A stretch of 31,051 nt of DNA. Source: a virus (Duplodnaviria; Heunggongvirae; Uroviricota; Caudoviricetes). Position 1 is the stretch's first letter; each line of letters begins with the position of its first letter. Below the pieces are notes generated by a model that was given only the letters and a program-made list of their open reading frames with translations, searched no databases and had not been told where the DNA came from. The stretch lies in IMG/VR virus record IMGVR_UViG_2909309443_000003; one strand, given 5' to 3'. The position numbers were made by a program, and so were the translations under genes. Of this stretch, positions 21,661 through 29,988 are shown piece by piece.

Positions 21661-22665
21661 ATGGGCGCGGAGATTAATATTTTGGAAACTGATTTTAAAA
21701 TAACCCTCGAAGGTTTCGCTACTGAGCAAGAAGCAAATAATATCGGTAATTTCACACTAGAAGCTATCCGAGCTTTAACAAAGAATCTCAATCTTGATAT
21801 CTCCAAATTAAAATGCGTGATTGTTTCCTATAACTTCAGTGAAGCTCTTCAAAAGGTAACATCCTCTTACCAACACAAATCCCCTAGTTCATTTACCAAT
21901 AGCAAACAGGGCGCAGCCGTCGGGCAGTTAGTAACAAAAATTGGCAATGATGGGCTATATGAAGAATATACCCTTGTGCTATCGATTGATTTTTTTGTTG
22001 AGCTTTTCAATGATGGTAGCTTCTTAAAACTGAAAGAAGAAGGATACCTCGCAGTCATCCATCGCATTCACCATGAATTAGTGCACGTACATGAAAAAAA
22101 CTTACTAACATGCTTAGCCCAAAACTTTACAGTCAACGAGTATGGTAGCGCGCTTCTTATCTCAGCCACGCGTGCATGGTCTGAATATCTCGCTAATTAC
22201 ATGTCTTCGGGGTCTGCCCCTCAAGAAACTGTCGATTTATTTTTAGAGAATCTTGACACTGTTGTAAATGAAGTATCTGACGAGATTGAAAAACTCATCT
22301 GGGGTTATAAGTACGGTAATATTTCTCTGAATGACATGTATCTTGAAGTAAAAAAACGTATCAGGCTAATCATCAACTCTTATGCTTATGCGATGGGTTA
22401 TGTCCATTCTCTAAACATCAATATTAAAGAATACGATCCAAAGCTATCCCTTACACTATCCAACTCAAAGATAAGATATCAATTATCAGAATTAGGCATT
22501 GCTTTTCAGAATCTTTATGGGAAGTTTAATGACCAGCACATTACAGGTTTTGGTGATTTTCGGGAGATAACAATAATCATTGATGAAATATTCAAGCAGT
22601 TTGGGCTTGTTTTAGAGTGTCCCGATTGGTCTGGCGACGGTGAACTCTACATACATGTAAATTAG
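21661..22665 (+). CDS. HExxH-motif protein of unknown function (AT-rich cargo gene between Q and cos)
   Basis: 334-aa ORF, AT-rich relative to its flanks, with no TM segment or signal peptide. His-rich motif HHELVHVHE at residues 137-145 contains HExxH. Occupies the phage-end cargo position next to cos. Confidence 0.7.
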   Translation: MGAEINILETDFKITLEGFATEQEANNIGNFTLEAIRALTKNLNLDISKLKCVIVSYNFSEALQKVTSSYQHKSPSSFTNSKQGAAVGQLVTKIGNDGLYEEYTLVLSIDFFVELFNDGSFLKLKEEGYLAVIHRIHHELVHVHEKNLLTCLAQNFTVNEYGSALLISATRAWSEYLANYMSSGSAPQETVDLFLENLDTVVNEVSDEIEKLIWGYKYGNISLNDMYLEVKKRIRLIINSYAYAMGYVHSLNINIKEYDPKLSLTLSNSKIRYQLSELGIAFQNLYGKFNDQHITGFGDFREITIIIDEIFKQFGLVLECPDWSGDGELYIHVN

Positions 22666-22884
22666 TTTAATCATAGTAGAAACATAATTAGCAGTTTGAA
22701 TCCTGCCACTCCTGTAAAGCCGCTGCTCCTGGTGGCTTTTCCATGCACACCACCATCACGCATCAGATGCGTCTCACGCGCACGAACACACTCGACCACC
22801 AACGAACCAGCAGCGACCACGACAGCGCCATCACGACGCGCTCAGAGGATAATTTTTATTATTACGCATCACTGCTGGCGCGCA

Positions 22885-22903
22885 ATGCTTTCCCCGCCAC
22901 GCC
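22885..22903 (-). other. cos cohesive-end site (186 type)
   Basis: Minus-strand sequence GGCGTGGCGGGGAAAGCAT is, from memory, identical to the phage 186 cohesive end and differs at 2 of 19 positions from the P2 one. Confidence 0.7.
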
Positions 22904-23063
22904 TGCCCGCTTTATGGGGCGGTTTTAATGCAGTTGCATGACAACTCTGGATCCGCGCTAGCTCTGGCGGCGCACGGACAGAACGGGCAAGACTGACGCA
23001 TGCAAAACCATGCACCTGATGCATGCACGACTAAAAAACGGGAAATTCGCGGAAAAATGGCAT

Positions 23064-23094
23064 AAAAAAACCGGCATTCAGGGTGCCGGTTTTA
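23064..23094 (-). terminator. intrinsic terminator (bidirectional; stronger on minus strand)
   Basis: CCGGCA, 7-nt loop, TGCCGG, flanked by A7 upstream and TTTTA downstream on the plus strand. On the minus strand the hairpin is followed by a U7 run, terminating the LexA-box operon before cos. Confidence 0.7.
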
Positions 23095-23112
23095 GTCTGG
23101 TTTTGTCGCGAT

Positions 23113-23214
23113 TAATGGCCGCGCAATGCGCCAATAACACTGTTGAGGCACATGCTGGCAACAATCATCAGAAAAATCGTCGTCCACGGATTTTCATAAA
23201 CGAGAGATAACATA
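23113..23214 (-). CDS. small hydrophobic peptide (33 aa)
   Basis: Hand-translated ORF MLSLVYENPWTTIFLMIVASMCLNSVIGALRGH with GAGGA about 11 nt upstream of the ATG at 23214; one predicted TM helix. Confidence 0.4.
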
Positions 23215-23229
23215 TTTATATAGTTCCTC

Positions 23230-23423
23230 TTATTTGCGCATTCTGATGTGATTTAACAGGTGTTTGATAACGACTGATAGCTCATCTTTACCGGCCTGCC
23301 CGACCATTTTTGCGGTGTAGCTTTCCACCTCGCGAGAGCTCAGGTCGTTATTTAAAGCCATTAAAGTCAGATTCTTTGCCCAATCGGCAAACGGGTCATT
23401 TTTCGATGAAAGGGGATTTTGCA
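23230..23423 (-). CDS. hypothetical protein (64 aa)
   Basis: Internal ATG at 23423 (MQNPLSSKNDPFADWAKNLTLMAL...) with GAGG upstream. The track ORF extends to a TTG at 23514 that lies inside the upstream repeat element. Confidence 0.5.
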
Positions 23424-23962: not shown

Positions 23963-24196
23963 TTAATGCAGCCAGCTATCGTCCTCCCATACCTGCTGCA
24001 TGATTTCCATTACTCGTTTTTTATCTTCGTCCAGTTTCAAACCGCTTAGTTCAACGCCATTAGCGGAGCCCTTGCGAATTCGGATAGCAGTCTTTGGGTA
24101 AATAGGTTGAAGATTGCGGTACAGTTCAGCCTCAAGTGCATCCAATGTTGCCTGACTAATTTTTTGCTCTTTATCCAACGTGATATTGATTCTCAT
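23963..24196 (-). CDS. DinI-family protein
   Basis: 77-aa ORF MRINITLDKEQKISQATLDALEAELYRNLQ...MEIMQQVWEDDSWLH; size and N- and C-terminal motifs match DinI/MsgA as I recall it. Lies in an operon behind a LexA box. Confidence 0.75.
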   Translation of the reverse strand: MRINITLDKEQKISQATLDALEAELYRNLQPIYPKTAIRIRKGSANGVELSGLKLDEDKKRVMEIMQQVWEDDSWLH

Positions 24197-24199
24197 AAT

Positions 24200-24382
24200 C
24201 TAATCAGCCTTATAAAAATTATCATCTTCGGTTTCGTTATTCTCGCTGTTTGCTAGGTCTGCAATGAGAGTGAGCGCGAGCTTTAAGTCTGATGGCTTGC
24301 AGTTTGCAATCAGAGATACCTCGGCAATAAATTGCACACAAGCCCACTTTTGCTGCGTTCGGCTGAAATGTTCGCCAACCAT
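24200..24382 (-). CDS. hypothetical protein, first gene of the LexA-box operon (possible antirepressor N-terminal part)
   Basis: 60-aa ORF with GGGAGGG 6 nt upstream of its ATG. In the same frame as the DinI-like ORF, separated only by TAG plus one codon. Confidence 0.55.
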   Translation of the reverse strand: MVGEHFSRTQQKWACVQFIAEVSLIANCKPSDLKLALTLIADLANSENNETEDDNFYKAD

Positions 24383-24401
24383 GAAATCCCTCCCACAGGG
24401 T

Positions 24402-24421
24402 TACTGTATATTTATACAGTA
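24402..24421. promoter_or_regulatory. LexA (SOS) box overlapping the operon promoter
   Basis: TACTGTATATTTATACAGTA is a near-perfect palindromic CTGT-N8-ACAG SOS box, about 20 bp upstream of the ATG at 24382 and overlapping a candidate TTGCCA -35 with downstream -10. Confidence 0.8.
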
Positions 24422-27745: not shown

Positions 27746-28255
27746 TCAAATCAGACCAAACGATGCGCCAATACCGCTCATGGTATCGACCACGCTCGAC
27801 ATAGCTGGATTAGTCTGCAGACGTGCATGCAGAGCCAGAGCCGACAATGACAACATGCGAATGCCGGAGTTAACGCTTTCAATCATGTTGTGCTTACGGG
27901 CAATGGTCAGACGTTCATCAGATACCGCGCCGCTCGCCAGTTCGCCGAGTTCACGCATTGCGCGCATGACATAAGACTGCAATTTGTCTTTAGCCAACTC
28001 ATTAACCGGCACGCATGGTAGGCAGTGAATCTGCGCTAAAAAACCATCAATGAGGGTTGAGTCTTCGGTCAGGTCAGTCAGCAGCCACAATTCAGACGGC
28101 GTGAACTGGTGAGGCTGTTCCGGGTTGAGCTTGTTACGTAACGTTTGAACGTTCATACCTGCACGCTCGGCCAGCTTCGCCATATTGTGACGCTGTGCGA
28201 AAATGCGGCATGCTTCGTCATAGTGGGGATGTTTGGAAACCTGAAAATCAAACAT
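27746..28255 (-). CDS. cII: CII-like lysogeny-establishment activator (186 CII family)
   Basis: Track ORF trimmed to MFDFQVSKHPHYDEACRIFAQRHNMAKLAERAGMNVQTLRNKLNP... (169 aa), which I recall as the 186 CII N-terminus; lies directly downstream of the apl-like gene. Confidence 0.65.
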   Translation of the reverse strand: MFDFQVSKHPHYDEACRIFAQRHNMAKLAERAGMNVQTLRNKLNPEQPHQFTPSELWLLTDLTEDSTLIDGFLAQIHCLPCVPVNELAKDKLQSYVMRAMRELGELASGAVSDERLTIARKHNMIESVNSGIRMLSLSALALHARLQTNPAMSSVVDTMSGIGASFGLI

Positions 28256-28287
28256 GGTTAAATTCCCTCTAACTTGCATAATCAAAT

Positions 28288-28659
28288 TCAGTTAAGAGCG
28301 GTGCGCTGGTCGATGTAGCGACAATCAATCGCTTGTTGAGTCAGCTTATCGCGCCATGCTTTTACGTTTACGAGGGTTCGGCTTCGTTTAGCAGCTTCTT
28401 CTTTGTTGGAAAAGTCTTTGGTCGGAGCTTTGAGAAGGACTCCCTCATCGAGCCATTGCCAGACCAGACGCTCGCTAACACCGCGAGTAGCGGCGAAGTC
28501 TTTCACAGTCATCGTGTCTGACATAGCGGAGCGAATCATTGTCTGTAGAGCTGGCAGCATGGCGGTAACGATGGCATCAAACTGTGTTGGATCTAGCAGC
28601 ACAGTTTGATTTTGTGAGTTTTGCGAGTCGTGCGTCGAGATTGATTTTGCATCTGACAT
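28288..28659 (-). CDS. apl: Apl/Cox-like HTH excisionase-regulator, first gene of the lytic operon
   Basis: 123-aa ORF with AGGAGA about 9 nt upstream of the ATG at 28659. HTH-like segment VKDFAATRGVSERLVWQWLDEGV. Longer than the 186 Apl as I recall it (about 87 aa), so the start is uncertain. Confidence 0.6.
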   Translation of the reverse strand: MSDAKSISTHDSQNSQNQTVLLDPTQFDAIVTAMLPALQTMIRSAMSDTMTVKDFAATRGVSERLVWQWLDEGVLLKAPTKDFSNKEEAAKRSRTLVNVKAWRDKLTQQAIDCRYIDQRTALN

Positions 28660-28722
28660 ATCGCATTATCTCCTGTTGTTTGAAATGTAGTGCAGTGGTG
28701 TGCATCTTGGTCGATGAATGCC

Positions 28723-28751
28723 ACTATAGATCGTAAAAAGTTTTCTGTAAA
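28723..28751 (-). promoter_or_regulatory. candidate lytic promoter pR (TTTACA, 17-bp spacer, TATAGT)
   Basis: On the minus strand, -35 TTTACA (28751-28746) and -10 TATAGT (28728-28723) point toward apl from a position next to the cI start. Confidence 0.55.
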
Positions 28752-28780
28752 CACCCATAAAATTATCTGTAGGGGTTTTT

Positions 28781-29641
28781 ATGAGTTCTGAGCTTGATGT
28801 TCAGTGGCGTGTTAGTGCAACGAACGGCGTATTGGAACGCTTAATGTCAGCCTATGGGGTCAAGATGCAAAAGGATTTGGCTGACCTGCTAGGTATCGCT
28901 AAACACAGCGTTAGCGGCTGGGTTCAGCGTGATGCAATACCTGGCAATGTCATAGTTAGGTGTTGTCTTGACACGGGAGCTGATATCAATTGGCTTGTAA
29001 ATGGAGAACTTGCAAATGCAAATCACGAGCGAGCCAGTTGCAAGTTAAAAGGCAAAGAGCTTTATGACGAGATTATGACGAATGGTGGTAAAACCGTTTT
29101 GCGTAGGATTCTTGATGCGTATGGCTTTACCATGCAAAAGGAGCTCGGTGATTTGCTCGGCATTTCCTCTGGCACAATTAGCACATGGGTAAGGCGAGAT
29201 TTTTTCCCTGGTGATGTTGTTGTTACATGCGCTCTTGATACCGATACGTCACTGGAATGGTTAGCAACAGGCAAGGGGCAAATGCGAGCTAACAGGGAAG
29301 ATGTCACATCTGGTTTTTCTATTAAAAAATCTCGTCTTGAATCTGGTGAGCTTAAGGATGCAGGAACGTGGCATCCTGACCCCTCAATGATTCCTTCTAA
29401 CTCAGGGGAATTGATTTTTGTTGACGGTGTAGCTGCCTCTTGGCTTGTCGACTGTTCTGCTTCGAATATAAGTAATGGTCGCTGGTTAATTGATATCGAC
29501 GGCGCTCTTGATGTTTTTGATGTAATTCGCTTGCCCGGTGGAAAAGTCAGGTTGTCAAATAAGTCTGCTGAGTTTGAATGCAACATTACAGACATTACTC
29601 CTGCCGGGGCTGTAGTTTTCACATTGGAAAAACACGTGTAA
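28781..29641 (+). CDS. cI: CI-type immunity repressor with duplicated N-terminal DNA-binding domain
   Basis: 286-aa ORF with AGGGG upstream of the ATG. Residues 106-164 and the C-terminal domain resemble 186 CI as I recall it. Residues 17-75 are a second copy of the HTH domain (about 55% identical). Confidence 0.7.
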   Translation: MSSELDVQWRVSATNGVLERLMSAYGVKMQKDLADLLGIAKHSVSGWVQRDAIPGNVIVRCCLDTGADINWLVNGELANANHERASCKLKGKELYDEIMTNGGKTVLRRILDAYGFTMQKELGDLLGISSGTISTWVRRDFFPGDVVVTCALDTDTSLEWLATGKGQMRANREDVTSGFSIKKSRLESGELKDAGTWHPDPSMIPSNSGELIFVDGVAASWLVDCSASNISNGRWLIDIDGALDVFDVIRLPGGKVRLSNKSAEFECNITDITPAGAVVFTLEKHV

Positions 29642-29649
29642 GGGACATT

Positions 29650-29988
29650 ATGAAATGTAAACTCTTTTTAGCTCTGCTTCTTACCCTTTCTTTTGGAGCC
29701 TCAGCCGCTGAAAAAACACAGGATTTAGATGGCGCTAAGTTTGGTGAGGATTGGCCGTTAACTTTTGAAAAAGCTACGGTGTCTTGTGTCAACGGTAAAT
29801 ATGCCTTTGTGTACGACAAAGCAACAGATGACCGATACCCATTAAATGGTTTTGCGATTGATGGAGTAAAGTCTGGAAAGCTTGAGGGGAGCAATATTGA
29901 TACTGTTTGGAAAGATAGCCCGGAGTATGCAGGCGTAAAAATTCCTTTGGATCCTGTAATGGATGCTGCAACAGCACTTTGGGAATAA
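29650..29988 (+). CDS. small secreted/periplasmic protein of unknown function
   Basis: Track ORF trimmed to the ATG at 29650 with AGGGA upstream. MKCKLFLALLLTLSFGASAAEK is a typical Sec signal peptide; mature part about 90 aa. Confidence 0.6.
   Translation: MKCKLFLALLLTLSFGASAAEKTQDLDGAKFGEDWPLTFEKATVSCVNGKYAFVYDKATDDRYPLNGFAIDGVKSGKLEGSNIDTVWKDSPEYAGVKIPLDPVMDAATALWE

Follow-up and report, generated by a model that had tools for sequence, protein, structure and literature searches.

Sequence comparisons suggest a division of operator recognition between the two DNA-binding heads of a PSP3-like CI repressor

The stretch of viral DNA analyzed here (31,051 nucleotides [nt]; IMG/VR record IMGVR_UViG_2909309443_000003; hereafter, the window) is an Escherichia coli prophage and a PSP3-like member of the P2 family (genus Eganvirus). 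Its cI gene encodes a 286-amino-acid (aa) immunity repressor in which two helix-turn-helix (HTH) domains, here called D1 and D2, precede a single C-terminal domain. From comparisons with related phages, we propose that the two heads divide the reading of DNA, D1 recognizing operators at the early lytic promoter pR and D2 recognizing palindromes at distal sites; we assign this reading a probability of roughly 0.6. The annotation of the gene as cI is already known, and the two-headed architecture is common and visible in databases. What is new is the identification of the extra length as a second head, the evidence pointing to recurrent duplication, and the proposal that the heads have diverged in role, which we consider somewhat better than an even bet on the sequence patterns described below.

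The repressor combines tandem HTH domains with a single CI-type C-terminal domain

The features of the repressor gene are as follows.

28781..29641, plus strand: cI gene, 286-aa two-headed immunity repressor, stop codon included (open reading frame [ORF] list, Pfam)
28771..28775, plus strand: Shine-Dalgarno sequence AGGGG, 5 nt ahead of the ATG at 28781 (read from the sequence)
28820..29026, plus strand: D1, the extra, hypervariable HTH, residues 14-82 (hidden Markov model [HMM] envelope)
28901-28927, plus strand: predicted recognition helix of D1, residues 41-49 (AlphaFold2)
29087..29293, plus strand: D2, the conserved HTH, residues 103-171 (HMM envelope), orthologous to the single HTH of 186 CI
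29168-29194, plus strand: predicted recognition helix of D2, residues 130-138
29318..29611, plus strand: 186-CI-type C-terminal oligomerization domain, residues 180-277 (PF16452; Foldseek match to 2fkd)

An earlier note, made from the sequence alone, had described a 286-aa repressor ORF at 28781-29641 with two copies of one HTH-type domain (residues 17-75 and 106-164) and a single CI-like C-terminal oligomerization domain. The ORF is present in our ORF list and begins with ATG at 28781. Pfam matched PF07022 (Phage_CI_repr) twice (E = 1.3e-52; best stretch, residues 106-169) and PF16452 (Phage_CI_C) at residues 180-277 (E = 1e-20, above the cutoff), and no Peptidase_S24 family was found among the Pfam matches of the repressor at E ≤ 1. 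HTH envelopes, at residues 14-82 and 103-171, were placed by a small custom-built HMM. When the two N-terminal halves were compared with each other by BLASTP, they were 50% identical over 74 columns (E = 5e-25), a similarity far above chance, and the global identity of the two 69-aa domains was 45%. The duplication and the single C-terminal domain, for which Foldseek also returned 2fkd, were thus described correctly; the peptides quoted for the repeats were exact, and the identity of about 55% given for them was slightly overstated, against the 45 to 50% measured.

The CI protein of phage 186 is 192 aa long, as the note had stated and as translation of the 186 locus (L006, 1465-2043) confirmed. 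An alignment with 186 CI, which the note had suggested as a check, showed that the crystal sequence (PDB 2fjr) matches residues 105-280 of the repressor only (E = 6e-22), with D2 aligned to 2fjr residues 9-73. D2 and the C-terminal domain together are therefore the full counterpart of 186 CI, and D1 is the added head. The characterized 186 CI has one HTH per subunit, and the repressor studied here has two complete HTH domains. The evidence supports a 186-type CI repressor with tandem N-terminal HTHs and a single CI-type C-terminal domain, and the two-HTH architecture makes it a variant within the 186 CI family, not an outsider.

D1 is translated, folded, and under purifying selection

If translation began instead at the internal Met99, the product would be a 188-aa, 186-like CI and the upstream repeat an untranslated relic. 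Met99 does stand directly ahead of D2, and single-HTH relatives begin at the equivalent point. However, relative to same-immunity relatives (L007 and L008; 40 to 43% synonymous difference, pS of about 0.4), the ratio of nonsynonymous to synonymous change (dN/dS) in D1 was 0.01 to 0.03, below that of the C-terminal domain in the same comparison. Translation from Met99 is therefore not tenable. The frame is also unbroken in hundreds of homologues of 267 to 290 aa, down to 40% identity, and a good Shine-Dalgarno sequence stands ahead of the ATG at 28781, with none obvious ahead of Met99. We regard the shorter protein, which the earlier note had named as the finding that would overturn its 286-aa reading, as scarcely credible.

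The same note had raised the prospect that the first repeat does not fold as a DNA-binding domain. In an AlphaFold2 model of the monomer, built with a 49-sequence alignment (mean predicted local distance difference test [pLDDT] score, 80.6), both heads form five-helix domains with pLDDT of about 75 to 90, D1 being built as an HTH domain like D2. The helices of D1 span residues 17-25, 30-37, 41-49, 55-65, and 69-74 (block pLDDT, 75 to 86). The linkers at residues 77-86 and 171-178 are disordered, and the C-terminal domain is beta-rich and confident (block pLDDT, 77 to 94). The best Foldseek matches of the model were both 186 CI, namely, 2fjr and 2fkd, the latter with a template modeling (TM) score of 0.89 and a root mean square deviation of 1.6 Å. 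In 49 sequences, down to 40% identity, the invariant residues of D1 were R20, Y25, W47, R50, C61, T65, W71, L72, and G75. These data show that D1 is translated, folded, and under purifying selection.

Between the heads, the segment LKGKxLYDEIMxNGGK ahead of D2 (residues 87-105; window 29039-29095) was almost invariant family-wide, and AlphaFold2 predicted that it lengthens the first helix of D2 (helix 92-114). Being conserved beyond the needs of a passive linker, it could be a surface on which, for example, the antirepressor docks.

D1 covaries with the DNA at pR

The promoter region upstream of cI contains the following features.

28723..28751, minus strand: pR-like early lytic promoter (promoter scan, 10/12 match)
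28737..28771, no strand assigned: candidate immunity-specific D1 operators (direct repeat, repeat family D10)
28641..28669, plus strand: possible pL, the lysogenic promoter, TTGATT - 17 nt - CATTAT (read from the sequence; weak)
28288..28659, minus strand: gene in the position of apl (apl-position gene), 123 aa, first gene of the pR operon (ORF list)

Averaged over the 120 closest homologues, identity to the query was 92% for D2 and 73% for D1, and the most variable part of all was the D1 recognition helix, which is AKHSVSGWVQRD in the window. Across a comparative set of 80 genomic loci, the D2 helix ISSGTISTW was near-invariant, and D1 occurred with more than 15 helix types. The pR-like promoter of the window, on the minus strand, consists of a −35 element TTTACA (28751-28746), a 17-nt spacer, and a −10 element TATAGT (28728-28723), and the same architecture could be anchored in most of the 80 loci.

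We compared the window with Midge and SW9, two phages that carry another D1 and other pR DNA on a related backbone and presumably differ from it in immunity. DNA identity was 97 to 100% through 28600-28719, the pL end of the apl-position gene; it dropped at about 28720 to 52 to 60%, fell to about 30% in 28780-28840, and then climbed gradually back to 75 to 93% over D2 and the C-terminal domain. On the left, identity breaks at the pR −10 element. The variable unit therefore runs from the pR spacer to the start of cI and on through the N-terminal tail and D1; since the apl-position gene is conserved across immunity types, D1 is the sole variable DNA-binding domain beside the variable DNA. We infer that D1 and the roughly 60 bp from the pR −10 element to the cI start are inherited together as a small, swappable immunity cassette.

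In most immunity types, the 17-nt pR spacer holds a type-specific element, such as ATCGCAAATGCGAT, ATCGTAAAAACGAT, ATCCATATGGAT, ACACGTAACGTGT, or GGTCAATTGATC, and a related second copy follows 21 to 23 bp on, at or just past the −35 element. Over 21 D1 types, perfect 6+6 palindromes were present at pR in 19%, compared with 2.4% in shuffled sequences, and the best direct 12-mer match at an offset of 20 to 23 bp averaged 8.14, compared with 6.74 (standard deviation, 1.05) after shuffling; both statistics are significant across types but modest. Two-turn phasing of adjacent dimers is a requirement of the wheel model for 186 CI (PMC3675496). In the window itself, the candidate operators are a direct repeat, AAAGTTTTCTGTA (28737-28749) and AAAATTATCTGTA (28759-28771), whose copies are 22 bp apart and lie over the −35 element and just upstream of it. 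The element TTNTCTGTA occurs three times in the window, each time in the switch region, against 0.46 occurrences expected. Loci that share the D1 helix AKSNVAS but differ in their D2 helix have the same pR spacer. These patterns suggest that D1 reads the pR operators. The expectation in the earlier note that a two-headed repressor would alter immunity specificity is supported in a narrower form, in that D1 and the pR DNA covary between heteroimmune relatives and D2 stays constant.

Directly upstream of the pR −10 element, a GATC (Dam site, 28729-28732, within TAGATC) was conserved across most immunity types (most of loci L001-L083) in a spacer that is otherwise variable; its role could be that of a constant operator half-site or of a pR element sensitive to methylation. 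The possible pL faces pR, falls under the threshold of the promoter scan, and was proposed by analogy with the pL annotation of 186.

A conserved palindrome occupies FL-, FR-, and pB-like positions

The candidate distal sites and the gene beside one of them are as follows.

28271..28288, no strand assigned: FR-like operator candidate, AACTTGCATAATCAAATT (pattern search, 1 mismatch)
29007..29024, no strand assigned: FL-like operator candidate, AACTTGCAAATGCAAATC, inside the linker between D1 and D2 (codons for residues 76-82; repeat pairs D2, I7, and I8; pattern search)
29035-29046: partner of the FL-like site, CAGTTGCAAGTT
27746..28255, minus strand: cII-like establishment activator (PF06892, E = 4e-46; start at 28255 as in the PSP3 annotation)

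An 18-bp palindrome, AACTTG-N6-CAAGTT, recurs at the positions where 186 has its FL and FR sites. The FR-like copy lies between the apl-position gene and cII, 16 to 33 nt upstream of the cII start and just downstream of DNA closely like the 186 CII site, and its center, CATAAT, is the likely −10 element of pE. In diverse loci, it is kept as AAyTyG-N6-CrArTT with compensatory changes in the arms, and in the 186 record, FR is annotated as a CI site that represses pE. The FL-like copy lies 226 nt into cI, compared with 270 nt for FL in 186. Within 81 unique cI genes, the synonymous sites under this copy were frozen: Leu77 was CTT in 35 of 36, Ala78 was GCA in 60 of 62, and Asn79 was AAT in 54 of 55, compared with a family-wide usage of 21% for Leu CTT and 26% for Ala GCA. 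The Gly and Glu codons flanking the site varied freely. When matches to CTTG-N6-CAA were placed relative to the cI start in 85 loci, they clustered at −550 to −450 (39 matches) and +200 to +300 (35 matches), where about 0.5 per 50-bp bin is expected.

In PSP3, SW9, Midge, and the E. coli EC1 prophage, the palindrome occurs once more, with an identical 15-mer (AACTTGCAAATGCAA), over the −35 element of the promoter (TTGCAA-16-TATTAT) that precedes the gene for the ogr/pag-like late activator. In EC1, whose tail gene D is about 99.9% identical to positions 1-886 of the window, this site falls 16 to 33 nt before window position 1, i.e., just outside the window. We take it to correspond to pB, the promoter of the 186 late activator, to which 186 CI binds as well.

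Beside the FL-like site, CAGTTGCAAGTT forms a 12-nt inverted repeat (92% complementary) of its left part, 16 nt apart, and was conserved in the PSP3 immunity type only. It may be a second, weaker FL site; a weak additional site, FL′, is mentioned for 186 (PMC3675496). We also considered the TTGATTTTG repeats (28603 and 28638; inverted copies in 28244-28285) as D2 sites and rejected them because the DNA at 28233-28256 closely resembles the 186 CII site, and TTGATT or TTGCAT is the likely −35 element of pL. The sole remainder of these repeats is a weak D2-like candidate at 28603-28620, with 4 mismatches.

The palindrome follows the D2 helix

Like D2, the palindrome was conserved across immunity types with differing D1s. 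The arms of the FR-like and FL-like sites change together, in a compensatory manner, and track the D2 helix. Helices of the SSGT kind pair with a CAAG or CAAA right arm (26 loci), STAT helices pair with CGAA (8 loci, with five different D1 helices), and xSGTMSA or SSGTISS helices pair with TAAG. D1s of the AKSNVAS type are found with both SSGT and STAT, and the palindrome goes with D2. The single-HTH CIs with a D2-type head from Ewingella (L085) and Chimaeribacter (L086), both 196 aa, have CTTGAyTTTGCAAG in their own pR spacer, and P0133, a related CI with one HTH, shares 75% identity with D2 in that domain. These observations point to D2 as the reader of AACTTG-N6-CAAGTT.

Weighing the division between the heads

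Several observations weigh against a clean division of labor. The 80 loci are related and non-independent, and the assignment of heads to sites rests on sequence comparison. Loci L011, L015, and L082 carry SSGT helices together with left arms that read CTTA or CTCG, and in some lineages, D2-type sites lie at or beside pR (over the −35 element in a Serratia group, at +14 in Midge); because of these cases, we regard the D1/D2 split as a tendency, not a rule. The covariation of D1 with the pR operators is in part simple linkage since the two are physically adjacent. The FR-like center and the pB-like site double as promoter elements, and this role adds to their conservation. The pR repeats of the window itself are direct and poorly palindromic, and as their best palindrome reaches only 4/6, we claim no defined operator grammar for this immunity type. 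The third TTNTCTGTA copy (28539, inside the apl-position gene) merely follows the coding similarity to Midge and is not conserved in PSP3, and it was rejected as a flanking operator. Finally, with a predicted TM score of 0.40, the AlphaFold2 monomer is uninformative on the arrangement of the heads.

The asymmetry of several pR operators (for example, ATCGA-N4-GAGT, which occurs twice in Midge) would fit a protein that acts as a single-chain pseudo-dimer, each operator being composed of a D1 half-site and a D2 half-site, with no division between pR and distal sites. The flexible linker between the heads would permit this geometry, and the GATCG beside the pR −10 element, conserved in most immunity types, could be the constant half-site. 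However, GATCG stays unchanged when the D2 helix shifts from SSGT to STAT, and it is unlike the site found in phages with a single-HTH, D2-type repressor. Many types instead have symmetric palindromes at pR (ATCGCAAATGCGAT, ATCCATATGGAT, and ACACGTAACGTGT), fitting two identical heads, and the FL-, FR-, and pB-type sites are symmetric too, with compensatory arm changes. We consider the pseudo-dimer unlikely. Slightly less likely again is a model in which D2 binds all operators and D1 serves as a regulatory or decoy domain, for example, a docking place for the SOS-induced antirepressor or a self-inhibitory lid. In its favor, 186 CI uses a single HTH to recognize two different operator sequences (Shearwin et al., 2002, as cited in PMC3675496), and the 60-aa ORF behind the LexA box described below is unrelated to the N-terminal half of 186 Tum and could match a new target. 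Yet the pR of the window has no good D2-type palindrome, the best one nearby being the four-mismatch candidate at 28603-28620, and the immunity-variable DNA lies exactly at pR and is linked to D1, with D2 unchanged. D1 moreover retains the signature of the HTH family, including W47 and R50 in helix 3, and diversification specific to the recognition helix is not expected of a decoy.

The palindrome might also be bound by CII, the apl-position protein, or a host factor, or be no more than promoter sequence, with D2 kept for structural reasons. The FR-like site does hold a −10-like CATAAT and the pB-like site a −35-like TTGCAA, and CII is encoded beside the FR-like site. The FL-like copy, however, lies inside the cI coding sequence, where the synonymous sites are frozen without an obvious promoter role, and the DNA that closely resembles the 186 CII site is an element distinct from the palindrome. 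The consensus remains constant over at least three sizes of apl-position gene (FR-like offsets of −367, −510, and −530), and within one apl-position gene type, the sites follow the D2 helix. In addition, FL and FR are annotated CI sites in 186, and the single-HTH, D2-type CIs carry the palindrome in their own pR. We therefore judge binding of the palindrome by another factor, or its maintenance as promoter sequence alone, to be improbable.

A proposed mechanism for the two-headed repressor

If the heads do divide the operators, D1 would read immunity-specific sites that overlap pR and are repeated with two-turn phasing, and D2 would read AACTTG-N6-CAAGTT at the FL-like, FR-like, and pB-like sites. 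By homology with 186 CI, the C-terminal domain would build a wheel of dimers, which could grip pR through its D1 heads and loop to the distal sites through its D2 heads. Induction would probably proceed through the LexA-controlled operon at 24.4 kb (see below), not through self-cleavage of the repressor. The fuller scheme, in which D1 and the pR operators form an exchangeable cassette, D2 keeps a family-wide palindrome at the looping and late-activator sites, and head addition took place at least three times, is tentative, and we would put it a little short of even odds.

Origin of the second head

In a neighbor-joining tree of single HTH domains, the PSP3-type D1s formed one long-branched clade, and the PSP3-type D2s formed a short-branched clade that included the single-HTH CIs. 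Other CIs with more than one HTH were found in Klebsiella phage 4LV2017 (313 aa) and as P0184, P0196, P0199, P0234, P0228, and P0237, the last with three copies. Their heads are 51 to 66% identical within a protein and 22 to 45% identical to the heads of other lineages. The higher identity within proteins than between lineages argues that the duplications were independent, and HTH duplication would thus have arisen in at least three CI lineages, although gene conversion within a protein may account for the same pattern. We also looked, in the representative set, for stand-alone D1-type repressors (D1 with a C-terminal domain) as donors for a fusion and rejected those found, as the short D1-like proteins look truncated or frameshifted.

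Among distant relatives, P0214 (525 aa) and P0237 (323 aa) carry three to six tandem HTH repeats of a similar type; P0214 has six matched stretches with acidic linkers between them and is without the CI C-terminal domain.

Identity of the prophage and distribution of the repressor type

The repressor is 97.9% identical to the cI product of Salmonella phage PSP3 (NP_958086, 286 aa) and 99.7% identical to that of Escherichia phage vB_EcoM-613R3, and cI is annotated as immunity repressor CI in PSP3, SEN1, vB_EcoM-613R3, Midge, and SW9. Identical cI DNA was present in at least 37 of 5,426 complete E. coli genomes; 42 genomes hold most of the cI DNA, and there the gene is annotated as phage repressor protein CI. 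A protein search returned 731 homologues. The best 120, from many Enterobacterales, were all 267 to 290 aa long except for one 208-aa entry, and nearly all had both Pfam families. In a scan of species-level genomes, the two-headed form was present in Citrobacter, Enterobacter, Kosakonia, Serratia, Pectobacterium, Dickeya, Rahnella, Pantoea, and others, amounting to more than 100 species-level genomes of Enterobacterales.

By length and domains, the repressor is of the CI type and not of the short P2 C type (about 99 aa); C-type and CI-type repressors are not alignable (PMC3448106). The gene order cII, apl-position gene, cI, DUF2511 gene, int agrees with PSP3 and 186. The CI of PsP3 has been said to possess a C-terminal domain that exceeds that of 186 CI in length, in the one article found to compare these repressors, which does not mention a duplication (PMC3448106), and our literature searches, whose coverage was incomplete, found no description of a tandem-HTH 186-type CI.

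Neighboring genes and a putative SOS module

The window also contains the following features.

24402..24421, no strand assigned: LexA box, TACTGTATATTTATACAGTA (perfect match)
24382..24200, minus strand: 60-aa ORF downstream of the LexA box (ORF list)
24196..23963, minus strand: DinI-like 77-aa ORF (DinI Pfam family, E = 7e-24)

The apl-position gene matched no Pfam family, and its counterpart in PSP3, gp30, has been termed a singleton (PMC3448106). Its DNA was 93 to 100% identical to that of Midge, in which the 5′ part of cI differs, and 85 to 100% identical when scored per 60-nt block. Because it is near-identical between heteroimmune phages, this second switch protein is not immunity-specific here.

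The region near 24400, where the earlier note had suggested looking for operator half-sites, contains not a CI operator but a perfect LexA box (TACTGTATATTTATACAGTA), which precedes a putative SOS operon that includes a DinI-like gene. Of the two ORFs, the 77-aa DinI-like one shares 47% identity with the C-terminal half of 186 Tum; the 60-aa one had no Pfam match and no detectable similarity to Tum. In the 186 record, p95, LexA, and tum are annotated, and both parts of Tum are one protein. The LexA box, the 60-aa ORF, and the DinI-like ORF together probably form an SOS-controlled antirepressor or induction module. The putative antirepressor part is here a different, separate gene, unlike the fused Tum of 186. 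We also observed TTGCAGTTTGCAA at 24297, inside the 60-aa ORF.

On the other side of the repressor gene, between cI and int, lies a gene for a signal-peptide protein of the DUF2511 (YebY-like) family (29651-29988, plus strand), which is present in PSP3, Midge, and SW9 and absent from 186. It is presumably cotranscribed with cI in the lysogen and is a possible lysogenic-conversion gene. Farther away, a 334-aa ORF (21661-22665, plus strand) stands between a portal-type gene and the SOS operon region; it had no Pfam or PADLOC match, and no convincing ORF was seen in the next 500 bp or so (22670-23230). The 334-aa ORF may be a cargo or defense gene at a variable locus.

Significance and comparison with known systems

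The switch of phage 186 is among the best-studied alternatives to the lambda paradigm, and the seven dimers of its wheel are shared among pR, pL, and the distal sites. With a natural two-headed relative, the coupling between operator choice, wrapping, and looping can be tested directly: each head can be mutated on its own, D1 can be exchanged among PSP3, Midge, and SW9, and the sites predicted are short, defined sequences. If the proposed division is true, new immunities would evolve by swapping or mutating one head with the long-range architecture undisturbed, which suggests how P2-family phages could come by new immunity types, namely, through a cassette roughly 300 bp long. A repressor of one immunity type would also still bind pE- and pB-type sites of heteroimmune phages, giving partial cross-repression of establishment and late genes, and such predicted cross talk of heteroimmune prophages through conserved D2 sites would be relevant to polylysogeny in Enterobacterales. 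The relevance is mainly for phage genetic switches and the evolution of immunity.

The closest known system is 186. The repressor shares with 186 CI its HTH family (PF07022) and its C-terminal domain (PF16452; TM score of 0.89 to 2fkd), and its gene likewise lies between apl/cII and int with a pR-type promoter directly upstream. Candidate distal sites are found at the counterparts of FL, inside cI, and of FR, over pE where apl and cII meet, and another is found at the late-activator promoter, the place of pB in 186. Where 186 has tum, the window has an operon that is controlled by LexA and includes a DinI-like gene. In contrast, 186 CI has one HTH in 192 aa, not two per subunit in 286 aa, and this HTH is only about 36% identical to D2. 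The FL and FR sites of 186 (ATTCAC-N5-GTGAAT) differ in sequence from the operators proposed here, and the two operator classes that 186 CI reads with one head appear to be split between two heads. The putative induction modules differ as well: here, the 60-aa ORF stands apart and is not related to Tum's N-terminal half. For 186 CI, a 14-mer wheel assembled from dimers, two-turn phasing, and looping to FL and FR have been described (PMC3675496).

Within the same family, the single-HTH, D2-type CIs (P0133, L085, and L086) share with the repressor the helix SSGTISTW, the C-terminal domain, and the CTTG-N6-CAAG palindrome, but they are without D1, and their palindrome lies in the pR spacer itself, not at a distance. 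The CI of Klebsiella phage 4LV2017 and other multi-HTH members also place tandem PF07022-type heads before a CI-type C-terminal domain, but their heads appear to have been duplicated independently. With repressors of the lambda CI/LexA (S24) type, the likeness is more general and consists of an N-terminal HTH, a C-terminal oligomerization domain, and cooperative long-range looping between operator clusters; the C-terminal domain shows only a distant fold resemblance to those of LexA and lambda CI (Foldseek query TM score of about 0.3). The oligomer of 186 CI is a wheel of dimers, whereas that of lambda CI is an octamer (PMC3675496). According to the tum annotation, 186-type CIs are inactivated by an antirepressor and not by RecA-stimulated self-cleavage, as lambda CI and LexA are.

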